Of a stretch of 64,000 bases of DNA, positions 13,458-52,858 are shown one piece after another. The notes beneath the pieces are model-generated. The model was not told the DNA's origin, searched no databases, and was given only the letters and a program-made list of their open reading frames with translations. A program made the position numbers and the translations under genes. How positions within the stretch are numbered: the stretch's first letter is position 1; each line of letters opens with the position of its first letter. The stretch comes from Candidatus Pacearchaeota archaeon (lineage in GTDB: Archaea > Nanobdellota > Nanobdellia > Pacearchaeales > GW2011-AR1): assembly GCA_041660485.1 (NCBI GenBank), contig JBAZWF010000001.1:279076-343075 (forward strand), read 5' to 3'.

Positions 13458-16457
13458 TTACGACACCTGAATTATAAGGCGAGAATTAGTGCCGTCCCAA
13501 TATATTTTTCCATCTCCCATGCTAATATTATTTCCCGCTCCGCTAACATTAATATTTCCAGCAACTTCTAGTTTTGCCCCATTAGGAGTCGCAGTTCCTA
13601 TCCCCACGTTTCCCCCAGTATTAACATATAATGTACTATTCAAAGAAACATTTCCACGAACATCTAAATAAGATGCAGGAGTTGTTATTCCTATTCCTAC
13701 TTTTCCTCCAGAAGTTATTCTCATTCTTTCAGCAGTATTTGCTACAAATGCAAGTTCATCAGCAGTAGGATATTCAATACCAATATAAGTATTACCATCA
13801 GTTTGTTTTATAATTCCTCCTCGAACTTGCAAATTTCCATTTATATCTAAGGTAGTTGCAGGATTTGCAATCCCTATACCTACCATTCCCCCACTTACAT
13901 CAACTTTAAATGTTGAAACATTAATTGTTAAATTATTACTTCCAAAATTAATAGGTTGATTTGCATTTGTCCCTGACAAATTCAAATATAAATTTCCTGC
14001 ACCAAGAGTTTGATTATACATCCATGCGCTTATATCTGTTCCATTTTGAATATAAATTGTATTTGAAACATTTATATTTCCTCTAACATCTAATAATTGA
14101 TAAGGTGTTGTTGTGCCTATTCCTACTTTTCCTAATTGATCAATTATCATACGCTGTTTGCTTCCAGCAGCATAAGAATCTGTTGTTCCAAAATACATTT
14201 TTGACCCAAATGTAGCAGAAGATTCTACATATATACCTGCTACCCCAGAATTAACTTGAGAACCAGCATTATTTCCACCAAAAGTAATTGATGAAGTATT
14301 AAAATTAGTCCCAACAGGATTTAAATGAATTGTTCCTTTACCAGTGCCTGAAGTAAGTGTTTCTGCTCCACTTTCAATTTGTAATTTACTTCCAGGAGTT
14401 GTTGTCCCTATACCAACTCTTCCACCATTTGCATCAACCTTAAATGTAGAAACATTAACAGTCAAATTATAATTTCCAAAATCAATTGGTTGATTTGCAT
14501 TTGTTCCAGACAAATTTAAATATAAATTTCCTGCACCTAAAGTTTGATTATACATCCATGCACTTATATCTGTTCCATTTTGAATATAAATTGTATTTGA
14601 AACATTTATATTTCCTCTAACATCTAATAATTGATAAGGTGTTGCTGTCCCTATTCCTACTTTTCCTGATCTACTTATACGCATAAGCTCTGCATTAGTA
14701 TAAGCATTGTTAGATGTTCCAATTTTAAATGTTATATCTCCCCCTCCAACACTATTATATGAAGTCATACCGATACTTGCCTTATAAAAATTAGTTAGAC
14801 TTGAATCATTATAAACTGCTAATTCATATCCATATATTCCTTGAGCACTTGTTCCTGCTGCAGGGTCTCCTTGAATTAACATTCCTGGATAAGTTAAATC
14901 TCCATCAATAATAATATAATCTCTGCCAGAATAAATCGCTCCAGACATAGAATTATACATTGGCCTAGTTGCAATATGTAATGGTGCTAAAGGTGTTGTT
15001 GTCCCTATTCCAACTCTTCCACCATTTGCATCAACTTTAAATGTAGAAACATTAACAGTAAGATTATTACTTCCAAAATTAATAGGTTGATTTGCATTTG
15101 TCCCTGACAAATTCAAATATAAATTTCCTGCACCAAGAGTTTGATTATAAGCCCATGTAACATAAGTTGCATTATATGTAGACATATAACTTAAGTTCGC
15201 AGCTGATAACCAAGTAACATTAACAGAAGCAAAATCATAAGTTTCATTATATTTAGAAATTCCAGTTAAAGCAGAACCATCGCCAACATAAGAACTTGCA
15301 TTCATAATTCCTGCAAAATATCCATTTTTCCATCTCAATGTAGCAGTTCCAATATCAAACTGATTATCAAATCCATCAGTAGGAATTAAACTTGCATTAA
15401 CATTTATATTATTAACAGCTAAAGAAGTTATATTATAAACATAAAGAGATTTTGCAAAAATATTTCCTCCAATAATTGAAACTCCTCCAGACTGCCAGCC
15501 ACTATTAAAATTTGTATTTCCAGAAATATTTAAACCACTTTCATCTGCATAAATTGTCGCACTTCCAACACGCAAATAACTTGTTAAATTCAATCCTAAC
15601 ATCTGTCCTTCTGAATCTAATCCATATTTTGCAGCATAAGTTTCATTATAAGTCGATAAATAACTTAAATTTGCAGCAGATAACCAAGTAACATTAACAG
15701 ATGCAAAATCATAACTTTCATTATAAATTCCTCCTGAAAAAGTTTGATTATATGCCCAAGTAGCATAAGTCGAATTATAAGTTGAATAAATTCCACTAGC
15801 ATTTAATAAATTCTGAATATTTCCAGTTGTATTAACTGATAAAATCATGCTTGTTTCGTTATAAACTCCTGCGCGCGAATCAATTGTAATATTTAATTGA
15901 GTATCATTAAAAGATAGCATACTTCCATTAAAAGAAAGATAATTTGAAGAAACACTATTAACAACCCAATTAAATAATCCTTTAAACCATCCTCCAGCAC
16001 TCATAGAAATATTCTGCCCAGGACTCATAGTTACTGAATCATTAGAAAGCATAATATTTGCATAACCATTGATATTTGAAAGAGAAATATTTCCAGTTGA
16101 ACTTTGAAAAATCTGCCTATCATTTCCATTAAAACTAAATTTCTCTCCATTAACATACATCTCAAAGTAATAAATTCCTCCATATTGTAAACTTAAATCT
16201 TGTGTCCCATTTCCAAGCATTACATCATATTTTCCAGCTGAAATAGAGTTAATAAAATCCCCTGAAGAATTATAAATCAAATTTCCTCCTGAACCAGCAT
16301 CATAAATATAAACTGTCAGATTTCCAGAAGCTAAGTTTACTCCACTTTGTTTAATATTTCCCTGCAAAGCCATTAAATCATCTGTTGCATAAACACCAGT
16401 CGCTATAAGAAAACTACAAATAATCACAACTCCAACTATTAATCTGCTAATTCTCAT
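13458..16457 (-). CDS. large secreted surface protein with tail-fibre-like GxVGIGTTTP repeats
   Basis: 999 aa; signal peptide MRISRLIVGVVIICSFLIATGVYA; three copies of NQTLGAGNLYLNLSGTNANQPINFG.NNLTVNVSTFKVDANGGRVGIGTTTP and repeated GKVGIGTATPYQLLDVRGNINVS motifs; sequon rich. Confidence 0.6.
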   Translation of the reverse strand: MRISRLIVGVVIICSFLIATGVYATDDLMALQGNIKQSGVNLASGNLTVYIYDAGSGGNLIYNSSGDFINSISAGKYDVMLGNGTQDLSLQYGGIYYFEMYVNGEKFSFNGNDRQIFQSSTGNISLSNINGYANIMLSNDSVTMSPGQNISMSAGGWFKGLFNWVVNSVSSNYLSFNGSMLSFNDTQLNITIDSRAGVYNETSMILSVNTTGNIQNLLNASGIYSTYNSTYATWAYNQTFSGGIYNESYDFASVNVTWLSAANLSYLSTYNETYAAKYGLDSEGQMLGLNLTSYLRVGSATIYADESGLNISGNTNFNSGWQSGGVSIIGGNIFAKSLYVYNITSLAVNNINVNASLIPTDGFDNQFDIGTATLRWKNGYFAGIMNASSYVGDGSALTGISKYNETYDFASVNVTWLSAANLSYMSTYNATYVTWAYNQTLGAGNLYLNLSGTNANQPINFGSNNLTVNVSTFKVDANGGRVGIGTTTPLAPLHIATRPMYNSMSGAIYSGRDYIIIDGDLTYPGMLIQGDPAAGTSAQGIYGYELAVYNDSSLTNFYKASIGMTSYNSVGGGDITFKIGTSNNAYTNAELMRISRSGKVGIGTATPYQLLDVRGNINVSNTIYIQNGTDISAWMYNQTLGAGNLYLNLSGTNANQPIDFGNYNLTVNVSTFKVDANGGRVGIGTTTPGSKLQIESGAETLTSGTGKGTIHLNPVGTNFNTSSITFGGNNAGSQVNSGVAGIYVESSATFGSKMYFGTTDSYAAGSKQRMIIDQLGKVGIGTTTPYQLLDVRGNINVSNTIYIQNGTDISAWMYNQTLGAGNLYLNLSGTNANQPINFGSNNLTINVSTFKVDVSGGMVGIGIANPATTLDINGNLQVRGGIIKQTDGNTYIGIEYPTADELAFVANTAERMRITSGGKVGIGITTPASYLDVRGNVSLNSTLYVNTGGNVGIGTATPNGAKLEVAGNINVSGAGNNISMGDGKIYWDGTNSRLIIQVS
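13868..15730 (-). repeat. intragenic long direct repeats (three ~240-bp copies at about 13868-14110, 14408-14645 and 14998-15150; a second ~60-bp pair at about 15195-15255 and 15665-15725)
   Basis: Near-identical DNA stretches ttccaaaattaataggttgatttgcatttgtccctgacaaattcaaatataaatttcctgcacc... recur with 530-590 bp period. Confidence 0.8.
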
Positions 16458-20852: not shown

Positions 20853-20955
20853 AAAAAATAGACAAAATCACAACTTTTAAACCTTTCTATTGTAACTACT
20901 AATTAGTTATTAAATATTAAAGAGGCAAATTCTAATTCCTAACAAGTTTTTAATA

Positions 20956-25103: not shown

Positions 25104-25364
25104 TTACAACTTTTTAACTTCACTAACTAATTTATCAGCTTCTTTTTGAATTTGTTCAATAGCATCTTCAATAGCTTTTCTTGGACTTTTTCCCTTTGTC
25201 TCAATTCTTAAAACAACTGGTTTATTTGGATGTTCTCTTTTCCAAGCTGCGAATATAACAGATGAATCTTTATTCAGATATTCTCTTAAAACCTCAGCTA
25301 TTGTTAAAGAATCTATAGATATTTCAATTTCATTCTTTTCATCTTTAATAATTTTTATGTCCAT
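25104..25364 (-). CDS. rpoL: DNA-directed RNA polymerase subunit L (Rpb11 homologue)
   Basis: 86 aa; pattern IKIIKDEKNEIEI.I....T.....R..L......V.FA....EHP resembles RpoL. Confidence 0.7.
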   Translation of the reverse strand: MDIKIIKDEKNEIEISIDSLTIAEVLREYLNKDSSVIFAAWKREHPNKPVVLRIETKGKSPRKAIEDAIEQIQKEADKLVSEVKKL

Positions 25365-25387
25365 ATATAAAGGTTAAAAAATGAGCC

Positions 25388-25501
25388 TTATAAATGTTAC
25401 GTTTCACTTTTCGTAACATTTATACTTGGGACGATAGTCACACTGTATAAATCTTTTGATGGGGCTTCTCAAAAGTTTATACTTGGAACGATAGTCCTAT
25501 C
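25388..25501. repeat. hairpin repeat family locus 1: B unit (25388-25424), linker, A unit (25444-25481), linker
   Basis: B = ttataaatgttacg-tttcactttt-cgtaacatttata (11-bp stem); A = tataaatcttttga-tggggcttc-tcaaaagtttata (13-bp imperfect stem); both recur at 27.94-28.27 kb. Confidence 0.85.
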
Positions 25502-26403
25502 TATTTTACTAATCCCTCAAGAGGTATTGAGACTTTTGAGTTAAGTGAAGGTAATTGGGGCACATATTCTGATTTAGGAATTATACCAAATTCTTTTCTT
25601 AACATACCTTCAGCTCTTTTATCAGTTATTTGAAAATTATTTTTGCTAGTTATATTAAATTTACCTCCATAAGTTTCAATGACAATATCTCTAATTGCTT
25701 TTAAGCCCATTCCCTGACTAGACATGTAAAAACTTCCATTTTCAATTTCTTTTGGTTCAAAACCTTTTTCAAAAAATCTTTTGATAAAATCCTGACTAAT
25801 AGGTTCATTAACAAGATTTTCAATTTCAAAATTAAATTGTTGAGATGTAAAATAGCTCATTGTTTTGATAACTGAGTTTTCTTTTGAATTTTTTATTGAA
25901 TTTGATATTAAATTTGAAAATATAGTATTAAATGCAAAAGGATTTGTATAAACTAATTTTTCTGCAACATCTTGGCTATAATCAAAGGTTAAACCAAGTC
26001 CTTTTTTTAATATAGAATGTGTCGAGCTATTAATAATTGAAGAAATTTTATCACTAACATTAATTTCTTTTTGATTTTTCGCAATATCTTTAGGTCTTAA
26101 GCCTTTCATCATAATAAGTGCAATTCTTTCTTCAAGTATATGATCAATATTATATTCTGCTCTCTCAATATAATCTCTTATCTTAATCTCTGGACCAGCA
26201 ACATCAAAATTATGAAGTTCTCTCAGTTTAGCAAGTTCCATTTCAACAAGCTGAAGATAACCCGAAGCATTTGCAAGAGGCCCTTTTAGTTCATGCGCTG
26301 CAAATTGCTGCATAACATCGTAATTTGCATTTACCCCTCTAAGTTCTTCATTTTCCATTCTAAGTCTTTCAATTTCCTGTTTCAATTGTTCATTTTGTTC
26401 CAT
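25501..26403 (-). CDS. soluble coiled-coil sensor histidine kinase-like protein (HisKA + HATPase_c), orphan
   Basis: Coiled-coil N-terminus (LKQEIERLRMENEELRG), H-box AHELKGPL, N-box SNLISNSIKNS, G-box GMGLKAIRDIV; no TM segment and no adjacent response regulator. Confidence 0.55.
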   Translation of the reverse strand: MEQNEQLKQEIERLRMENEELRGVNANYDVMQQFAAHELKGPLANASGYLQLVEMELAKLRELHNFDVAGPEIKIRDYIERAEYNIDHILEERIALIMMKGLRPKDIAKNQKEINVSDKISSIINSSTHSILKKGLGLTFDYSQDVAEKLVYTNPFAFNTIFSNLISNSIKNSKENSVIKTMSYFTSQQFNFEIENLVNEPISQDFIKRFFEKGFEPKEIENGSFYMSSQGMGLKAIRDIVIETYGGKFNITSKNNFQITDKRAEGMLRKEFGIIPKSEYVPQLPSLNSKVSIPLEGLVK

Positions 26404-26474
26404 TTTAAATTACTTGTCATAGAGATTTAATTTATAAACCTTTTGGTTTTTTCTACCAATCAGTAGATAAAAAA

Positions 26475-27344
26475 TTAATTAATTGGCTGAAGAGTAAATT
26501 CTGGTTGTGCAAAAACAGAAGCATGTTTTATAACTGAAAAAACCCCAATAAATTTTTGCTCATTAAAAACCGCAATTTTTTCACCAACCCATTTTTCTTT
26601 AAAATTAATAACATCTTTTTTAAATAATGGAGAACCACGATACAATCTAGTAATTGACTCCTTATTAACATAAACAACTGGCAAAGCTTTTGAAATAATT
26701 TCACCAGGAATCAAAATTTCACGTAAAAGCTTTTCATTTCCTTTTTTATATTCCTCAACAGCCTTATAAAAATCAAATAAAGTTATAGAATCTTGTTCTT
26801 CAAAAATACTTGCTCTTGTTCTTCTTAACTCAAGCATATGAGCTCCTCCAATTTTCTGCCCAAGGTCATCAATTAATTTTCTTATATATGTCCCTGCCTG
26901 AACCTCTGTTTTAAATAAAATTTCCTTTTCATCTTTTTCAATAAGCTCAAATGAATAAATATTTCTTAATCTCTCTTCTCTTTTAACATTTGATTTTAAA
27001 GGAGGTTTTTGAATTATTTCTCCGATAAATTCTTTCATCTGTTTTTCAATCTCTTTAATTGACAAATCATTATGGATTCTCATTATACCAACATATTCTT
27101 TTTTACTTCCAATAAAATAAGGCATTAGTCTACAAGCTCGATTTATTGCAATAGGTAAAACACCTGATACTTGAGGATCAAGTGTTCCAAAGTGAGAACT
27201 TTTAGTTAAATTCAAAGCTTCTTTTATAATAATATCAATTTCAAAACTTGTCTGTCCACTTGGCTTATCAATATTAATTATAGAAAACTGCAAAAGTTCA
27301 TTAATTGGCTTTTCTTTCTGTATTTTAGTTAGATCAATTTCCAT
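26475..27344 (-). CDS. cbf5: tRNA/rRNA pseudouridine synthase Cbf5 (TruB family with PUA domain)
   Basis: INIDKPSGQTSFEI....HFGTLDPQVSGVLPIAINRACRL is the TruB catalytic block with Asp; C-terminal PUA-like region. Confidence 0.85.
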   Translation of the reverse strand: MEIDLTKIQKEKPINELLQFSIINIDKPSGQTSFEIDIIIKEALNLTKSSHFGTLDPQVSGVLPIAINRACRLMPYFIGSKKEYVGIMRIHNDLSIKEIEKQMKEFIGEIIQKPPLKSNVKREERLRNIYSFELIEKDEKEILFKTEVQAGTYIRKLIDDLGQKIGGAHMLELRRTRASIFEEQDSITLFDFYKAVEEYKKGNEKLLREILIPGEIISKALPVVYVNKESITRLYRGSPLFKKDVINFKEKWVGEKIAVFNEQKFIGVFSVIKHASVFAQPEFTLQPIN

Positions 27345-27378
27345 AGAAATAATAAAAATCTATATTTTAATAATGTGT

Positions 27379-27915
27379 CTATTTACTTTTAAGATAATCT
27401 TCATACGCTTTATTAAATTCATTAATCATTTGTTCACTTAATGTAAATTCAACATTAGTATATTTTTCTTTATCATAAGATATAGTTGTTCTCCAGTTTG
27501 TTAAAGGGCAATTTTTAATAGTCATTTTATTTCCATATATAAGATATTCTCCTTGTAAAAGTTTGTTGTTTTTTCTCATATCAATATAAGTCTTAGTCCA
27601 TTCTTCCACAGATTCTATAGGACATAAAATATCTACATTATCATTATTTCTTGTTTTTTCTTTAATTTCAACTGTCCAGTTTGGTTTTGGAAAGTCATAC
27701 ATACTAAGAGTCTTTGATTCAGAATCCCAAAAATAAGCTTTTTGATTTTTCATCATAAAACTATGATTATCTTCAGCTCTTTCTCGCATTAAAACATTTA
27801 TTGAGGGTTTTAATGCAGGAACATATGAAGGAAGAAACTCATTATTGGAGTGAACAAGTCCCAAGCTAGATAAAGCAATTATTGAAGCAAGCCCAGTTTG
27901 TTTAATATAATTCAT
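27379..27915 (-). CDS. secreted hypothetical protein
   Basis: Signal peptide MNYIKQTGLASIIALSSLGLVHS; 178 aa; no motif. Confidence 0.45.
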   Translation of the reverse strand: MNYIKQTGLASIIALSSLGLVHSNNEFLPSYVPALKPSINVLMRERAEDNHSFMMKNQKAYFWDSESKTLSMYDFPKPNWTVEIKEKTRNNDNVDILCPIESVEEWTKTYIDMRKNNKLLQGEYLIYGNKMTIKNCPLTNWRTTISYDKEKYTNVEFTLSEQMINEFNKAYEDYLKSK

Positions 27916-27938
27916 CTGTTGATAGAAAAGGGAGATTT

Positions 27939-28268
27939 TATAAATCTTTTGATGGGGCTTCTCAAAAGTTTATACTTGAAAAATGTTAATTTTTCACTGT
28001 ATAAATGTTACGTTTCACTTTTCGTAACATTTATAGCCAAGACAATAGTCGCAGGATATAAATCTTTTGATGGGGCTTCTCAAAAGTTTATACTTGAAAA
28101 ATGTTAATTTTTCATTGTATAAATGTTTTCATTACCTTTTTTAAAACATTTATGCTTGGGACGATAGTCACATTGTATAAATGTTACGTTTCACTTTTCG
28201 TAACATTTATAGCCAAGACAATAGTCGCAGGATATAAATCTTTTGATGGGGCTTCTCAAAAGTTTATG
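27939..28268. repeat. hairpin repeat family locus 2: tandem ~118-bp-period array A1-D-B1-C-A2-D-B'-C'-B2-C-A3
   Basis: A units at 27939-27975, 28057-28092 and 28233-28268. B units at 28000-28035 and 28176-28211, with a variant B' at 28118-28153. D hairpin gaaaaatgttaatttttc appears twice. C linker gccaagacaatagtcgcagga appears twice, alternating with cttgggacgatagtcac. Confidence 0.85.
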
Positions 28269-28269
28269 C

Positions 28270-28761
28270 TTAGCTATTTGCATTATATGTTTCAAGAATT
28301 CTATTAATTATATTTGTAGATGAATAGCCCTCTTCAAGTTCATAATTCTTAAATTTTCCCCCCCATTCAGATAATACTTTCTGCTCTTCAGCAATTCTTT
28401 CAGCAACAAAACTCCCTCCTTTAATATGGATATTTGGTTTTATTATTTTTAATAATTCTAATGGAGTATCTTCATTAAAAATTGTTATATAATCAACACA
28501 TTCAAGAGCAGATAACATCAAAGCTCTTTCTTTTTGAGGGATTATCGGGCGATTTTCCCCCTTAAATCTTTTTATTGAATCATCACTATTTAATAAAACA
28601 ATTAAACAATTTGCTTCATTTGCTGCCCTCTCTAAAAGATTAACATGAGCATAATGAAGAATATCAAAACTGCCATTTGTTGTTGCAATTGTTTTCTTAT
28701 TTTCTCTAATATTTTTAGCAATACTAAAAATCTCTTTATAACTTCTTATTTTATAATCCAT
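28270..28761 (-). CDS. cytidylyltransferase-fold nucleotidyltransferase (RfaE domain II / RibL-like)
   Basis: ATTNGSFDILHYAHVNLLERA (HxGH-type motif), KGENRPIIPQKERALMLSALECVDYITIF, HIKGG. Confidence 0.55.
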   Translation of the reverse strand: MDYKIRSYKEIFSIAKNIRENKKTIATTNGSFDILHYAHVNLLERAANEANCLIVLLNSDDSIKRFKGENRPIIPQKERALMLSALECVDYITIFNEDTPLELLKIIKPNIHIKGGSFVAERIAEEQKVLSEWGGKFKNYELEEGYSSTNIINRILETYNANS

Positions 28762-32686: not shown

Positions 32687-32760
32687 TACCTACAATATAA
32701 CAAATTGCTTTTAAACATTGCCCTTTTGATTATTGCTTAGCTCTGACATTATATCAAAAG

Positions 32761-32797
32761 ATTTATAAACTATAGCCACTATAGTGGCTATAGGAAA
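32761..32797 (+). promoter_or_regulatory. TATA box (tttataaa) followed by perfect 24-bp palindrome ctatagccactatagtggctatag (32770-32793), 4 nt before the antitoxin ATG
   Basis: Exact reverse-complement symmetry verified by eye; position fits an autoregulatory operator of the RHH antitoxin on a leaderless transcript. Confidence 0.7.
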
Positions 32798-33010
32798 ATG
32801 GAAACAACAACAATTCAACTTAGCAGAGAAACAAAAGACAAAATAGCTTCATTTGGATTAAAAGGAGAAAGTTACGATGAAATTCTTAAAAGGATTTATG
32901 CATTAGCTGTTAAAGAACAATTAAAAGAATTCTTACTTTCATCAGAAAATACTATTTCAATTGAAGATGCTATTAAAGAGCTGAATAAAAAATGGCCAAG
33001 GTCGAAATAG
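32798..33010 (+). CDS. ribbon-helix-helix (CopG/RHH-like) antitoxin
   Basis: TTIQLSRETKDKI N-terminal beta-strand motif; 70 aa; overlaps the toxin by 19 nt. Confidence 0.55.
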   Translation: METTTIQLSRETKDKIASFGLKGESYDEILKRIYALAVKEQLKEFLLSSENTISIEDAIKELNKKWPRSK

Positions 33011-33333
33011 TTCGTTCCTTGTTCGAAGAAATTGAAAAGAAATTCAAAGAAGAATCATATGAAATTATTGAGTTAATGAAAAGTTTAGAAGAAAATCCCC
33101 ATAAAGGAAAACCATTAGGAAACATTGGAGGGGTTTTAATTAAAGAAATAAGGTATAAAAATTTCAGATTTTACTTTATCACAGATGGCCATAAATTAAA
33201 ATTTTTAAATGAAGAAAGTTTAGCTAATTTACTAATAATTTTTATCAAAATGTCTGATAAAAAAAGTCAGCAGAAAACAATTGATGAAATCAGAAAAATA
33301 CTTATTACTTTAGGTCCAAAGGGTTTTGAATAG
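32992..33333 (+). CDS. RelE/ParE-family toxin
   Basis: EENPHKGKPLGNIGGVLIKEIRYKNFRFYFI matches the RelE/ParE core (g.pL.g.l.g..elR.g.yR..y). Confidence 0.6.
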   Translation: MAKVEIVRSLFEEIEKKFKEESYEIIELMKSLEENPHKGKPLGNIGGVLIKEIRYKNFRFYFITDGHKLKFLNEESLANLLIIFIKMSDKKSQQKTIDEIRKILITLGPKGFE

Positions 33334-40317: not shown

Positions 40318-40430
40318 TTTAACCTTACCTATTTTTTCGCTAATAATATGAGCTTTTTAAACATTACTAAGCTATTACATTGTTAAATTAAAGGTTGGTA
40401 ATTAAAATATCTAATTAATTCATAAAAGTA

Positions 40431-51570: not shown

Positions 51571-52101
51571 TCAACATCTCTCCAAAATAAACTCAACTCT
51601 CTTCTCAGGCTCCATTACAGGCACTTTTATAACTTGATATCCTAAATCAACATAAACTTTTTTTAACATCTTATGCAATTTTTTAGCAATTTTAACTGGC
51701 TCTTTCCTAACTTGATCAATTTTATAAGGAACCATCTCAAGCAAAAAAACTTTTTTATAATCTCTTTTTGTTTTTTTACTTTCTTCAACTATTTCCTTAT
51801 CTAATGAAGTATTTGTCAATTCATAATAAACCAGCCCATCTGGCATTCCTCTATCTAAAAATATTTTTCCATCAAATTTATCAAATTTTTTCTCATTTTT
51901 CAATTGCAATTTTAAAATCATTATTTGAAATTTAGAAACATTTCCATCAAAAGTAACAATCTCTCTGCCTTTTTTCTTTTCATTTTCAATTATTTTTCTT
52001 GCAGCTTCTTCAACAACTTTATATCCTCTTTTTTTCAGAATTTCAATTGTAGTTGTCTTACCACTAGACGGTCCCCCAGTTATAACATATTTTTCAACCA
52101 T
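51571..52101 (-). CDS. AAA_28-type P-loop ATPase / nucleoside-kinase-like protein
   Basis: ITGGPSSGKTT Walker A directly at the N-terminus; DRGMPDG; small NadR-C/Ttd14-like architecture. Confidence 0.5.
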   Translation of the reverse strand: MVEKYVITGGPSSGKTTTIEILKKRGYKVVEEAARKIIENEKKKGREIVTFDGNVSKFQIMILKLQLKNEKKFDKFDGKIFLDRGMPDGLVYYELTNTSLDKEIVEESKKTKRDYKKVFLLEMVPYKIDQVRKEPVKIAKKLHKMLKKVYVDLGYQVIKVPVMEPEKRVEFILERC

Positions 52102-52300
52102 TTTTTTTATTAAACGAATGTCTTAACTATTCCATATAACAACAAAACTAAAGCAATTATACCTAAAGTCCATAAAATCCCTCTCAGGATTTTTTCTTTA
52201 TCACTTTTTTTCATAATATATCTAATATTCTAGATTTTATAAATCTTACAGCGTATATCTCAACAAAAAAATCGTAACATTTATAAACTAAAGTTAATAT

Positions 52301-52858
52301 ATGTTAACTATGGTAAATATATATGAACTAAAGTTAACAAATCTCCAGCAGAGAATATTAAGACTGCTTTTTGTAAAAACCGGAGTTTCATTAAATGCAT
52401 TGAGAATAGCAAAAAATCTGAAGGTTTCACAGCCTGCAGTTTCAAAAGCCCTGCCATTATTATTAAAAGAAGATTTGATAAAAGCAGAAAAAGACAAAAA
52501 TTCCGGAAGATTATCTATTGAAGCAAACAGAGAAAATCATAAAGTAATGCAGTTAAAAAAAATAGATAATTTAAAGCTAATTTATGAATCAGGATTTGCT
52601 GATTTTATTGAAAAAGAGTTTGCAGGTGCAACTATAATTTTATTTGGCAGTTATTCAAGAGGTGAAGACACTATCAATTCAGATATTGATATTGCAGTTA
52701 TTGGTAGAAAAGATAAACTAATTAATTTAGAGAAATTTGAAGCTATGCTAGAAAGAAAAATAAATATTAATTTTTATACTTCATTTAAAGAAATTCATAA
52801 AAACCTAAAAGAAAATCTCTTTAATGGTATTATTTTATATGGGGGAGTAGAATTATGA
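52301..52858 (+). CDS. nucleotidyltransferase (minimal MNT) with N-terminal wHTH
   Basis: LFGSYSRGEDTINSDIDIAV matches the GS..RG....SDxD pol-beta-NTase motif; N-terminal HTH-like helix. Confidence 0.6.
   Translation: MLTMVNIYELKLTNLQQRILRLLFVKTGVSLNALRIAKNLKVSQPAVSKALPLLLKEDLIKAEKDKNSGRLSIEANRENHKVMQLKKIDNLKLIYESGFADFIEKEFAGATIILFGSYSRGEDTINSDIDIAVIGRKDKLINLEKFEAMLERKININFYTSFKEIHKNLKENLFNGIILYGGVEL

Follow-up and report, generated by a model that had tools for sequence, protein, structure and literature searches.

Enterobacterial genomes carry REP/BIME elements, in which palindromic units of ~35 nt, belonging to several types and joined by few conserved linker motifs, occupy intergenic spaces between co-directional genes. 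The orientation of BIME units alternates from one to the next; their copies are dispersed and number in the hundreds, RAYT transposases accompany them, and their termini are of the GTAG type. In haloarchaea, the rRNA operons are preceded by tandem promoter-bearing direct repeats, which are longer, non-palindromic, and serve a very highly expressed operon. To our knowledge, almost nothing is known about the transcription signals of DPANN archaea. For Pyrococcus furiosus, bidirectional promoters with a BRE-TATA-BRE architecture have been described, in which one TATA box is shared and the transcription start sites (TSSs) are 49 bp apart (PMC6640164).

The repeats described here are found in a Candidatus Pacearchaeota MAG, of which 64 kb of a ~857-kb contig were analyzed (the whole of this stretch is called the window below). 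The window has a G+C content of 28%, and among 5.8 billion proteins the closest Cbf5 sequences share only 65-66% identity with the one encoded here. Two hairpin arrays, 2.4 kb apart, each fill the entire gap from the stop of one minus-strand gene to the start of the next. The genes concerned are:

25104-25364, minus strand: rpoL (ATG at 25364)
25501-26403, minus strand: GHKL/histidine-kinase-like gene (stop codon 25501-25503)
26475-27344, minus strand: cbf5
27379-27915, minus strand: gene of a 178-aa signal-peptide (secreted) protein (ATG at 27915)
28270-28761, minus strand: cytidylyltransferase-like gene (stop codon 28270-28272)

A look-up of the 178-aa protein returned no record, and a search for tRNA and tmRNA genes found none.

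The repeat family is composed of three palindromic units of 36-37 nt (A, B, and C) and three linker types. The array in front of rpoL holds two units (25389-25500), and the array at 28 kb holds six (27939-28268) in the order A-L3-B-L2-A-L3-C-L1-B-L2-A'. Unit B (TATAAATGTTACGTTTCACTTTTCGTAACATTTATA) is found exactly at 25389-25424, 28000-28035, and 28176-28211; unit A (TATAAATCTTTTGATGGGGCTTCTCAAAAGTTTATA) is found exactly at 25446-25481, 27939-27974, and 28057-28092 and with one mismatch at 28233-28268. Both sequences are identical at the two array sites, all eight units have the same orientation, and 0.00 matches to unit A or unit B are expected in shuffled sequence. An earlier sequence-only reading had proposed that one hairpin family is present at two sites 2.4 kb apart, and the exact matches confirm this; the individual units it listed are present as well, but 1-2 nt away from where it had placed them (B starts at 25389 and A at 25446). 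Unit B, built as TATAAATGTTACG-TTTCACTTTT-CGTAACATTTATA, is a perfect palindrome with a 13-bp stem and a 10-nt loop. Unit A, built as TATAAATCTTTTGA-TGGGGCTTC-TCAAAAGTTTATA, has a stem of 6 bp, a bulged T, and 7 bp, closed by a 9-nt loop. Linker CTTGGGACGATAGTCAC is found at 25425, at 28155, and in variant form at 25482; linker GCCAAGACAATAGTCGCA is found at 28036 and 28212, and the mini-hairpin linker CTTGAAAAATGTTAATTTTTCA at 27975 and 28093; L3 (CTTGAAAAATGTTAATTTTTCAYTG) includes an A5/T5 mini-hairpin. The parts of both arrays are:

25376-25381, minus strand: run of six T (T6) on the gene strand, located between TATA box and ATG of rpoL
25389-25424, unstranded: unit B; its left arm on the minus strand is the predicted rpoL BRE/TATA
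25425-25445, plus strand: linker L1 (CTTGGGACGATAGTCACACTG, 21 nt), joining B to A
25446-25481, unstranded: unit A
25482-25500, plus strand: linker variant L1v (CTTGGAACGATAGTCCTATCT), reaching the stop codon of the kinase-like gene (25501-25503)
27939-27974, unstranded: unit A, gene-proximal in the 28-kb array
27975-27999, unstranded: linker L3 (CTTGAAAAATGTTAATTTTTCACTG), whose A5/T5 mini-hairpin gives a T5 run on either strand
28000-28035, unstranded: unit B
28036-28056, plus strand: linker L2 (GCCAAGACAATAGTCGCAGGA)
28057-28092, unstranded: unit A
28093-28117, unstranded: linker L3, copy 2 (ends CATTG)
28118-28154, unstranded: unit C (TATAAATGTTTTCATTACCTTTTTTAAAACATTTATG), whose arm AAAACATTTAT equals the rpoL BRE/TATA of relatives
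28155-28175, plus strand: linker L1, copy 2 (ends ACATTG)
28176-28211, unstranded: unit B
28212-28232, plus strand: linker L2, copy 2
28233-28268, unstranded: unit A' (ends TTTATG), one base short of the stop codon of the cytidylyltransferase-like gene (28270-28272)

Within the 28-kb array, one part stems from a recent tandem duplication of 176 nt (98% identity over 101 nt). Over 25456-27968, an independent short-read Logan contig (L001) matches the window with 100% identity, and on both sides it ends within A units, as is expected of a true repeat; it spans the region between the arrays, the number of units within the 28-kb array being outside its reach. A relaxed search of the 64-kb window found no further unit copies above noise. 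Within the window, the linker motifs GACRATAGTC and GAAAAAY..RTTTTTC are confined to the arrays and are thus not a regulon signal. A separate repeat was observed in a 999-aa ORF (13458-16457), where an identical 29-nt hairpin-forming sequence (ATTTGCATTTGTCCCTGACAAATTCAAAT) is found at 13959-13987 and 15090-15118, 1131 nt apart, and probably reflects an internal domain duplication.

With REP/BIME elements the arrays have in common the ~35-nt palindromic units of several types, the small set of linkers, and the location between co-directional genes. However, they are uniformly oriented instead of alternating, are found at two adjacent sites in 64 kb, and have TATAAAT termini and promoter arms. 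Like the haloarchaeal rRNA repeats they are promoter-bearing direct repeats stacked upstream of one gene, but their units are shorter and palindromic. A CRISPR array, which has similar ~36-nt palindromic elements and regular spacing, was rejected, as three different units are present and the 21-25-nt "spacers" are themselves repeated two to three times.

To describe the promoters of the window, a position weight matrix was trained on the upstream regions of 64 window genes, both array genes being excluded. The resulting motif is tARaAAGrTTTAAAAr (BRE/TATA). Among its 33 sites above 8 bits, the distance from the motif end to the ATG is exactly 21 nt in 12, each of the other spacings being represented at most twice, and across the window a large share of genes has the motif at the 21-nt spacing (for example, at 20853-20890, 40318-40360, and 59017-59056). 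A BRE/TATA element at this distance indicates leaderless mRNAs, which implies that the predicted transcripts of this Pacearchaeota genome are mostly leaderless. In each array, the arm closest to the downstream gene coincides with such a site:

27937-27952, minus strand: predicted core promoter of the 178-aa gene, TCAAAAGATTTATAAA (11.7 bits; exactly 21 nt from the ATG at 27915)
25387-25402, minus strand: predicted core promoter of rpoL, ACGTAACATTTATAAG (7.5 bits; 22 nt from the ATG at 25364)

The A arm belongs to the top 0.007% of window positions, and its predicted start (27915) is the A of the ATG, which agrees with the promoter character that the sequence-only reading had suggested for the 28-kb array. 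The predicted start of the B arm is 25365, compared to the rpoL ATG at 25364. Based on the motif match, the 21- or 22-nt spacing, and a position that is conserved in relatives, the gene-proximal arms are identified as the predicted core promoters of rpoL and the 178-aa gene; that they actually fire is a step we infer. The internal gene-direction arms score 6.5-6.8 bits and the plus-strand arms <5 bits, the latter mainly because CT follows TTTATA there, so that most units may be silent. Given the linker length, transcription is predicted to start where the next hairpin begins, on its first bases. Compared to the bidirectional promoters of P. furiosus, the units have a similarly symmetric, in principle two-way architecture in a low-GC genome, but they contain two outward TATA boxes with the BREs inside, their predicted starts are ~84 bp apart, and the antisense TATA box is often TTTATG.

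The same genes are found with plain promoters in relatives (L052-L056), which are distant (only 65% Cbf5 identity). Their gene order is S19e, L31e, DNA-alkylation repair, (cytidylyltransferase), 181-aa gene, cbf5, small ORF, RNA methyltransferase, rpoL, and no TATAAAT-ended hairpins were found at the syntenic loci of L052 and L054-L056. In L052 and L055, rpoL is preceded by CAAAACATTTATAAG and 22 nt, and the leader of the window gene can be aligned with theirs (gcataatttgaactttattat against gctcattttttaacctttatat). The 181-aa gene of the relatives is homologous to the 178-aa gene (E = 1e-9), and in L052 GAAAGATTTATAAA is followed by 21 nt before its ATG, again with an alignable leader. For rpoL as well as for the 181-aa gene, the promoters found in L052, L054, and L055 can be aligned with the proximal arms of the window, and neither has an inverted promoter copy upstream. 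It follows from the aligned plain promoters that the proximal A and B arms occupy ancestral promoter positions. The novelty of the lineage, as judged from these alignments, is the upstream inverted copy and the amplification. By its identity with the relatives' promoter, the unit C arm AAAACATTTAT is the presumptive ancestral rpoL version; that AAGGTAA is common to the unit C loop and the region upstream of rpoL in L055 is suggestive only. The window BRE differs at two positions from the relatives' native BRE, and the gene order departs from that of the relatives at both array sites. Between 23798 and 26403, it was observed that rpoL is oriented opposite to L052, L054, and L055 relative to cbf5, that the kinase-like gene is absent from the relatives and its place is taken by an 83-88-aa ORF (L052, L055) or a 210-aa ORF (L054), and that the 221-aa gene following rpoL downstream and the 266-aa gene of the relatives are not counterparts.

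These comparisons bear on the remaining proposals of the sequence-only reading, in which the repeats flank a three-gene operon and could regulate it, the 25.4-kb copy as its terminator or processing module. The B arm is the predicted rpoL core promoter, 22 nt from the ATG and orthologous in relatives; given this position and orthology, the 25.4-kb copy is better described as the rpoL promoter region and the "bracket" as incidental. Nor are the repeats specific to the operon. The synteny check that had been proposed, namely whether the repeats always accompany the operon, gave relatives that keep the neighborhood (L31e, DNA-alkylation repair, 181-aa gene, cbf5, and rpoL) without any hairpins. 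The operon itself is doubtful, as the relatives lack the kinase-like gene, which in the window is preceded by a strong promoter site of its own (11.1 bits). For cbf5, no promoter site at canonical spacing was found, and it may thus be co-transcribed with the 178-aa gene. The first run of at least five T lies 119 nt past the stop of the kinase-like gene, beyond both hairpins, and after the stop of the cytidylyltransferase-like gene such a run is first encountered at 168 nt.

In L009, a Nanoarchaeota MAG of the same organism as L050, pattern scans identified an array of two hairpins. It consists of hairpin D, CTCAAAAACTTCCTGTTTTTGTTG (an A5/T5 mini-hairpin), hairpin E, and a tail with GGATAGTCAC, and it is located upstream of a small wHTH gene in a neighborhood that is conserved in L057-L064. 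In L061-L064, the orthologous wHTH gene has one plain promoter (CAAAACATTTATAAAAG) at the corresponding position, and the proximal arm of hairpin D is CAAAACATTTATAT. Since the D arm corresponds to this plain promoter, a like palindromization would have taken place at a different native promoter in another lineage, and we read L009 as an independent second case of native-promoter palindromization. The five units from the two lineages have one geometry (13-bp stem, 9-13-nt loop), and L009 also carries an A5/T5 mini-hairpin linker and the motif GATAGTCAC, which there lies within coding sequence. The L009 genome contains one array locus only.

The neighborhood of the L009 array (5596-7785; L057-L064) is a conserved three-gene arrangement in many Pacearchaeota and Nanoarchaeota. 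It encodes a 500-700-aa protein without a Pfam match, a 67-75-aa wHTH protein that is ~70% identical among many genomes, and a Cys-rich DUF4215 protein of very large size. In L059 and L060 (1792-1965), six different tandem mini-hairpins are found in the intergenic space upstream of the conserved small wHTH gene; they have 9-11-bp stems and purine-rich loops, are of the GAAAAC..GTTTTC type, and have no Rfam match.

Units A, B, and C and the L009 units D and E have common ends (TATAAAT and ATTTAT(A/G)). Stem positions 8, 11, 12, and 13 differ among A, B, D, and E and are yet complementary inside each unit, with double changes such as C:G versus G:C at position 8 and, in B, TT:AA versus AC:GT at positions 11-12; unit C is complementary at 8, 11, and 12 and mismatched at 13 (C opposite T). 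Such complementarity is not expected of two independent promoters and indicates that the arms were copied from each other or selected to pair. On this comparison of stems, the palindromy is stronger than the promoter consensus alone would yield. The two directions are not equivalent. All units have an unbroken TTTATA as their gene-direction TATA box, whereas A', C, D, and E carry TTTATG in the antisense direction. Read in gene direction, the loops are purine-rich in B, C, D, and E, as is the sequence upstream of normal promoters here, and mixed in A. The intact TATA box and the purine-rich loops favor the gene-direction arm as the constrained and putatively functional one.

Array-like arms are also found at other promoters of the window, one of which the sequence-only reading had listed as a 13-mer identical to the 3' half of unit B. 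That 13-mer (CGTAACATTTATA) is present, but at 52273-52285 and not at 52266-52278, and it is one arm of a divergent promoter pair rather than a stray half of a repeat:

52238-52285, unstranded: two divergent promoters, placed back to back, whose arms resemble those of unit B (TATAAATCTTACA - 22 nt - CGTAACATTTATA; 11 of 13 positions complementary)

A 34-aa ORF has its ATG (52214) at a distance of 21 nt from the minus arm, which scores 8.1 bits. The plus arm (9.0 bits) and the second ATG (52310) of a MarR-nucleotidyltransferase gene are 22 nt apart, a spacing that favors the second ATG as the start of this gene. The 34-aa ORF (52112-52214, minus strand; MKKSDKEKILRGILWTLGIIALVLLLYGIVKTFV) encodes a hydrophobic membrane peptide, appears to be unannotated, has its own canonical promoter, and lies 7 nt upstream of an AAA_28 gene (51571-52101). 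The gene at 52301/52310-52858, which had been assigned to a HEPN-MNT locus, encodes a MarR-type wHTH fused to a nucleotidyltransferase domain, and the 147-aa ORF downstream of it has no Pfam match. The 16-mer of the A arm (TCAAAAGATTTATAAA) is found in identical form at 32754-32769 as the promoter of an RHH-like gene. This promoter belongs to a toxin-antitoxin-like pair (32754-33333), in which a 70-aa RHH-like ORF (32798-33010) overlaps a 113-aa ORF (32992-33333). The TATA box and the ATG of the RHH-like gene enclose a perfect palindrome of 24 nt (CTATAGCCACTATAGTGGCTATAG), which is likely an autoregulatory operator. On other DPANN contigs, single TATAAAT...ATTTATA hairpins are found in L044 (3395-3480), where the hairpin sits between divergent genes, and in L046 (124-225), where the ORF on the minus strand, as read by eye, extends past the end of the contig. 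Their arms are 23-25 nt from a minus-strand ATG, and by this placement they are predicted to be natural back-to-back promoter pairs like the one at 52238-52285.

Wider searches for the units were mostly negative. A degenerate A/B/C pattern gave 44 matches in 185,579 species genomes, none of which is an A/B/C copy and which are mostly chance matches or a conserved Clostridia coding motif. With a stricter pattern, IMG/VR gave nothing and the JGI metagenomes gave six loci, L050 being the only related one; two of the loci found (L049 and L051) were discarded as unrelated Bacteroidetes-type repeats. Like L004 and L011, they represent intergenic repeat clusters of the bacterial Bacteroidetes type, unrelated to the arrays, in which ...GCCGTAAAGATATAAA... 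units recur. The six-frame translated array, used as a protein query to detect ORFs mis-called over other copies, had no match, and literature searches on Pacearchaeota hairpins or tandem archaeal promoter repeats found nothing. Several other element types were considered and rejected. An H/ACA or C/D guide RNA beside cbf5 does not fit the continuous 13-bp stems, which have no pocket or internal loop and no RUGAUGA/CUGA boxes. The repeat RNA of a type III toxin-antitoxin system was dismissed, as the 178-aa gene that lies downstream is conserved in a syntenic position and relatives have a homologue of it. At a replication origin a turning point of the cumulative GC skew would be expected, but the skew falls monotonically, and no ORB-like boxes are present. 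The 68-69-aa plus-strand ORFs over the array are read-through of the repeats and not genes.

We consider it reasonably probable that the units are palindromized native promoters, which were amplified in tandem and exchanged between two promoter regions. Each hairpin unit would consist of two archaeal core promoters (BRE and TATA) placed back to back, the 13-nt arms being mirror images. The arm nearest to the downstream gene would be the ancestral leaderless promoter, namely that of B for rpoL and that of A for the 178-aa gene, and palindromization in this lineage would have added an inverted BRE/TATA copy 9-13 nt upstream of each native promoter. Units and their 21-25-nt linkers would then have been amplified in tandem and swapped between the promoter regions 2.4 kb apart, delivering the mosaic arrays, probably through slippage, template switching, or gene conversion; the amplification is termed local as judged from 64 kb of the ~857-kb contig. 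The arrays resemble ordinary archaeal BRE/TATA leaderless promoters in their motif, the 21-22-nt spacing, and the orthology to the relatives' plain promoters, and differ from them in the inverted copy 9-13 nt upstream, the near-perfect hairpin, and the 2x and 6x tandem arrangement. Most likely, the extra units would act as weak tandem promoters in gene direction, and short transcripts starting with a hairpin would be stopped at the T5/T6 runs (in L3 and at 25376-25381). The same runs would also stop read-through from upstream genes. As the T6 run at 25376-25381 is the first oligo-T past the stop of the kinase-like gene, it is a possible read-through terminator, and the extra units together with the T runs may insulate the downstream promoter against read-through.

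A mobile origin has also to be considered, according to which the units are selfish or structural repeats (a REP/BIME-like mosaic or MITE-like) with termini that mimic BRE/TATA, which insert at or replace TATA boxes and regenerate a working promoter at the junction. The main argument for it is the occurrence of similar parts (A-like and C-like hairpins, the A5/T5 linker, and GATAGTCAC) at the unrelated L009 locus; independent accidents would explain the common geometry, linker, and GATAGTCAC less well than a modular or mobile element present in both lineages. However, L009 has this one locus only, and its GATAGTCAC is coding. Three hairpin types and three linker types are shuffled as a mosaic, as in BIMEs, and the copies are 100% identical at both window sites with differing linkers, but all units have a single orientation, and 64 kb hold just two adjacent sites and one promoter pair. 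The altered gene order at both array sites and the native BRE, which is unlike that of the relatives at two positions, would agree with insertion; against it, no A/B/C copy was found in the genome, metagenome, and viral collections scanned, and the translated arrays match no protein. As in MITEs, the arms behave as inverted repeats, but a target-site duplication is inseparable from these terminal repeats (a TA/TATA duplication would be indistinguishable from the arms), and the relatives lack the units but share only 65% Cbf5 identity. Overall, we regard a mobile origin as unlikely.

Expression as RNA appears more doubtful still. The units would here be small hairpin RNAs or a multi-hairpin ncRNA on one strand, each carrying the promoter of the next, as could be read from the 21-25-nt linkers, which let the predicted start coincide with the first bases of the following hairpin, and from the L3 hairpin and its T5 run, which could end such RNAs; the internal promoter arms are, however, weak. 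Both strands fold far better than shuffled sequence (z of -6.7 and -7.4 for the 28-kb array, and -4.1 and -5.5 for the 25.4-kb array), but any palindrome folds well on either strand by construction, so that these values are uninformative. Stem pairing survives the double changes between units, and on the plus strand the stem mismatches (the TTTATG substitutions) are T-G wobbles, a feature that would fit an RNA hairpin of this strand equally well. On the other hand, relatives lack hairpins at the same sites, and no Rfam family was found: Rfam 15 gave no match at gathering scores over the whole window, chance-level matches only at E up to 10 in 25300-28400, and none over the related loci. The least probable explanation, to which we give very little weight, is a matched regulatory pair that brackets the 178-aa/cbf5/kinase block, with an operator/promoter array upstream and a terminator or processing site downstream. 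The arrays do flank this block, its promoter lies in the upstream array, and the first T run past the kinase-like gene is beyond both hairpins. Yet the downstream array is placed as the rpoL promoter, the 181-aa/cbf5 pair of the relatives has no repeats, the kinase-like gene is lineage-specific with a promoter site of its own, and the linker motifs are found nowhere else in the window, without any sign of a regulon.

Returning to palindromized native promoters, the repeats constitute, on the evidence of alignment and motif, a real, lineage-specific, and promoter-derived palindromic repeat family. A broader proposal, which is speculative and which we think rather unlikely, is that Pacearchaeota and Nanoarchaeota of the DPANN contain a previously undescribed class of modular promoter cassettes, made of mirror-image BRE/TATA hairpins and A5/T5 mini-hairpin terminators, which would spread to or recur at native promoters, amplify, recombine, and rewire transcription starts and stops in compact leaderless genomes. 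If true, this class would be an archaeal, promoter-bearing analogue of bacterial BIMEs. Of practical importance is that palindromic repeats of this type break short-read assemblies and that the arrays make 2.4-kb direct repeats around the essential gene cbf5. The window offers a clear view of a BRE/TATA motif at a fixed 21-nt spacing and of core promoters that appear, in two lineages separately, to have been turned into perfect palindromes, amplified, and swapped between neighbors. Provided that the extra copies are active, they would constitute a simple natural system for tandem and bidirectional promoters and for the insulation of tightly packed genes, and if the modules move, they would represent a new type of promoter-donating repeat.
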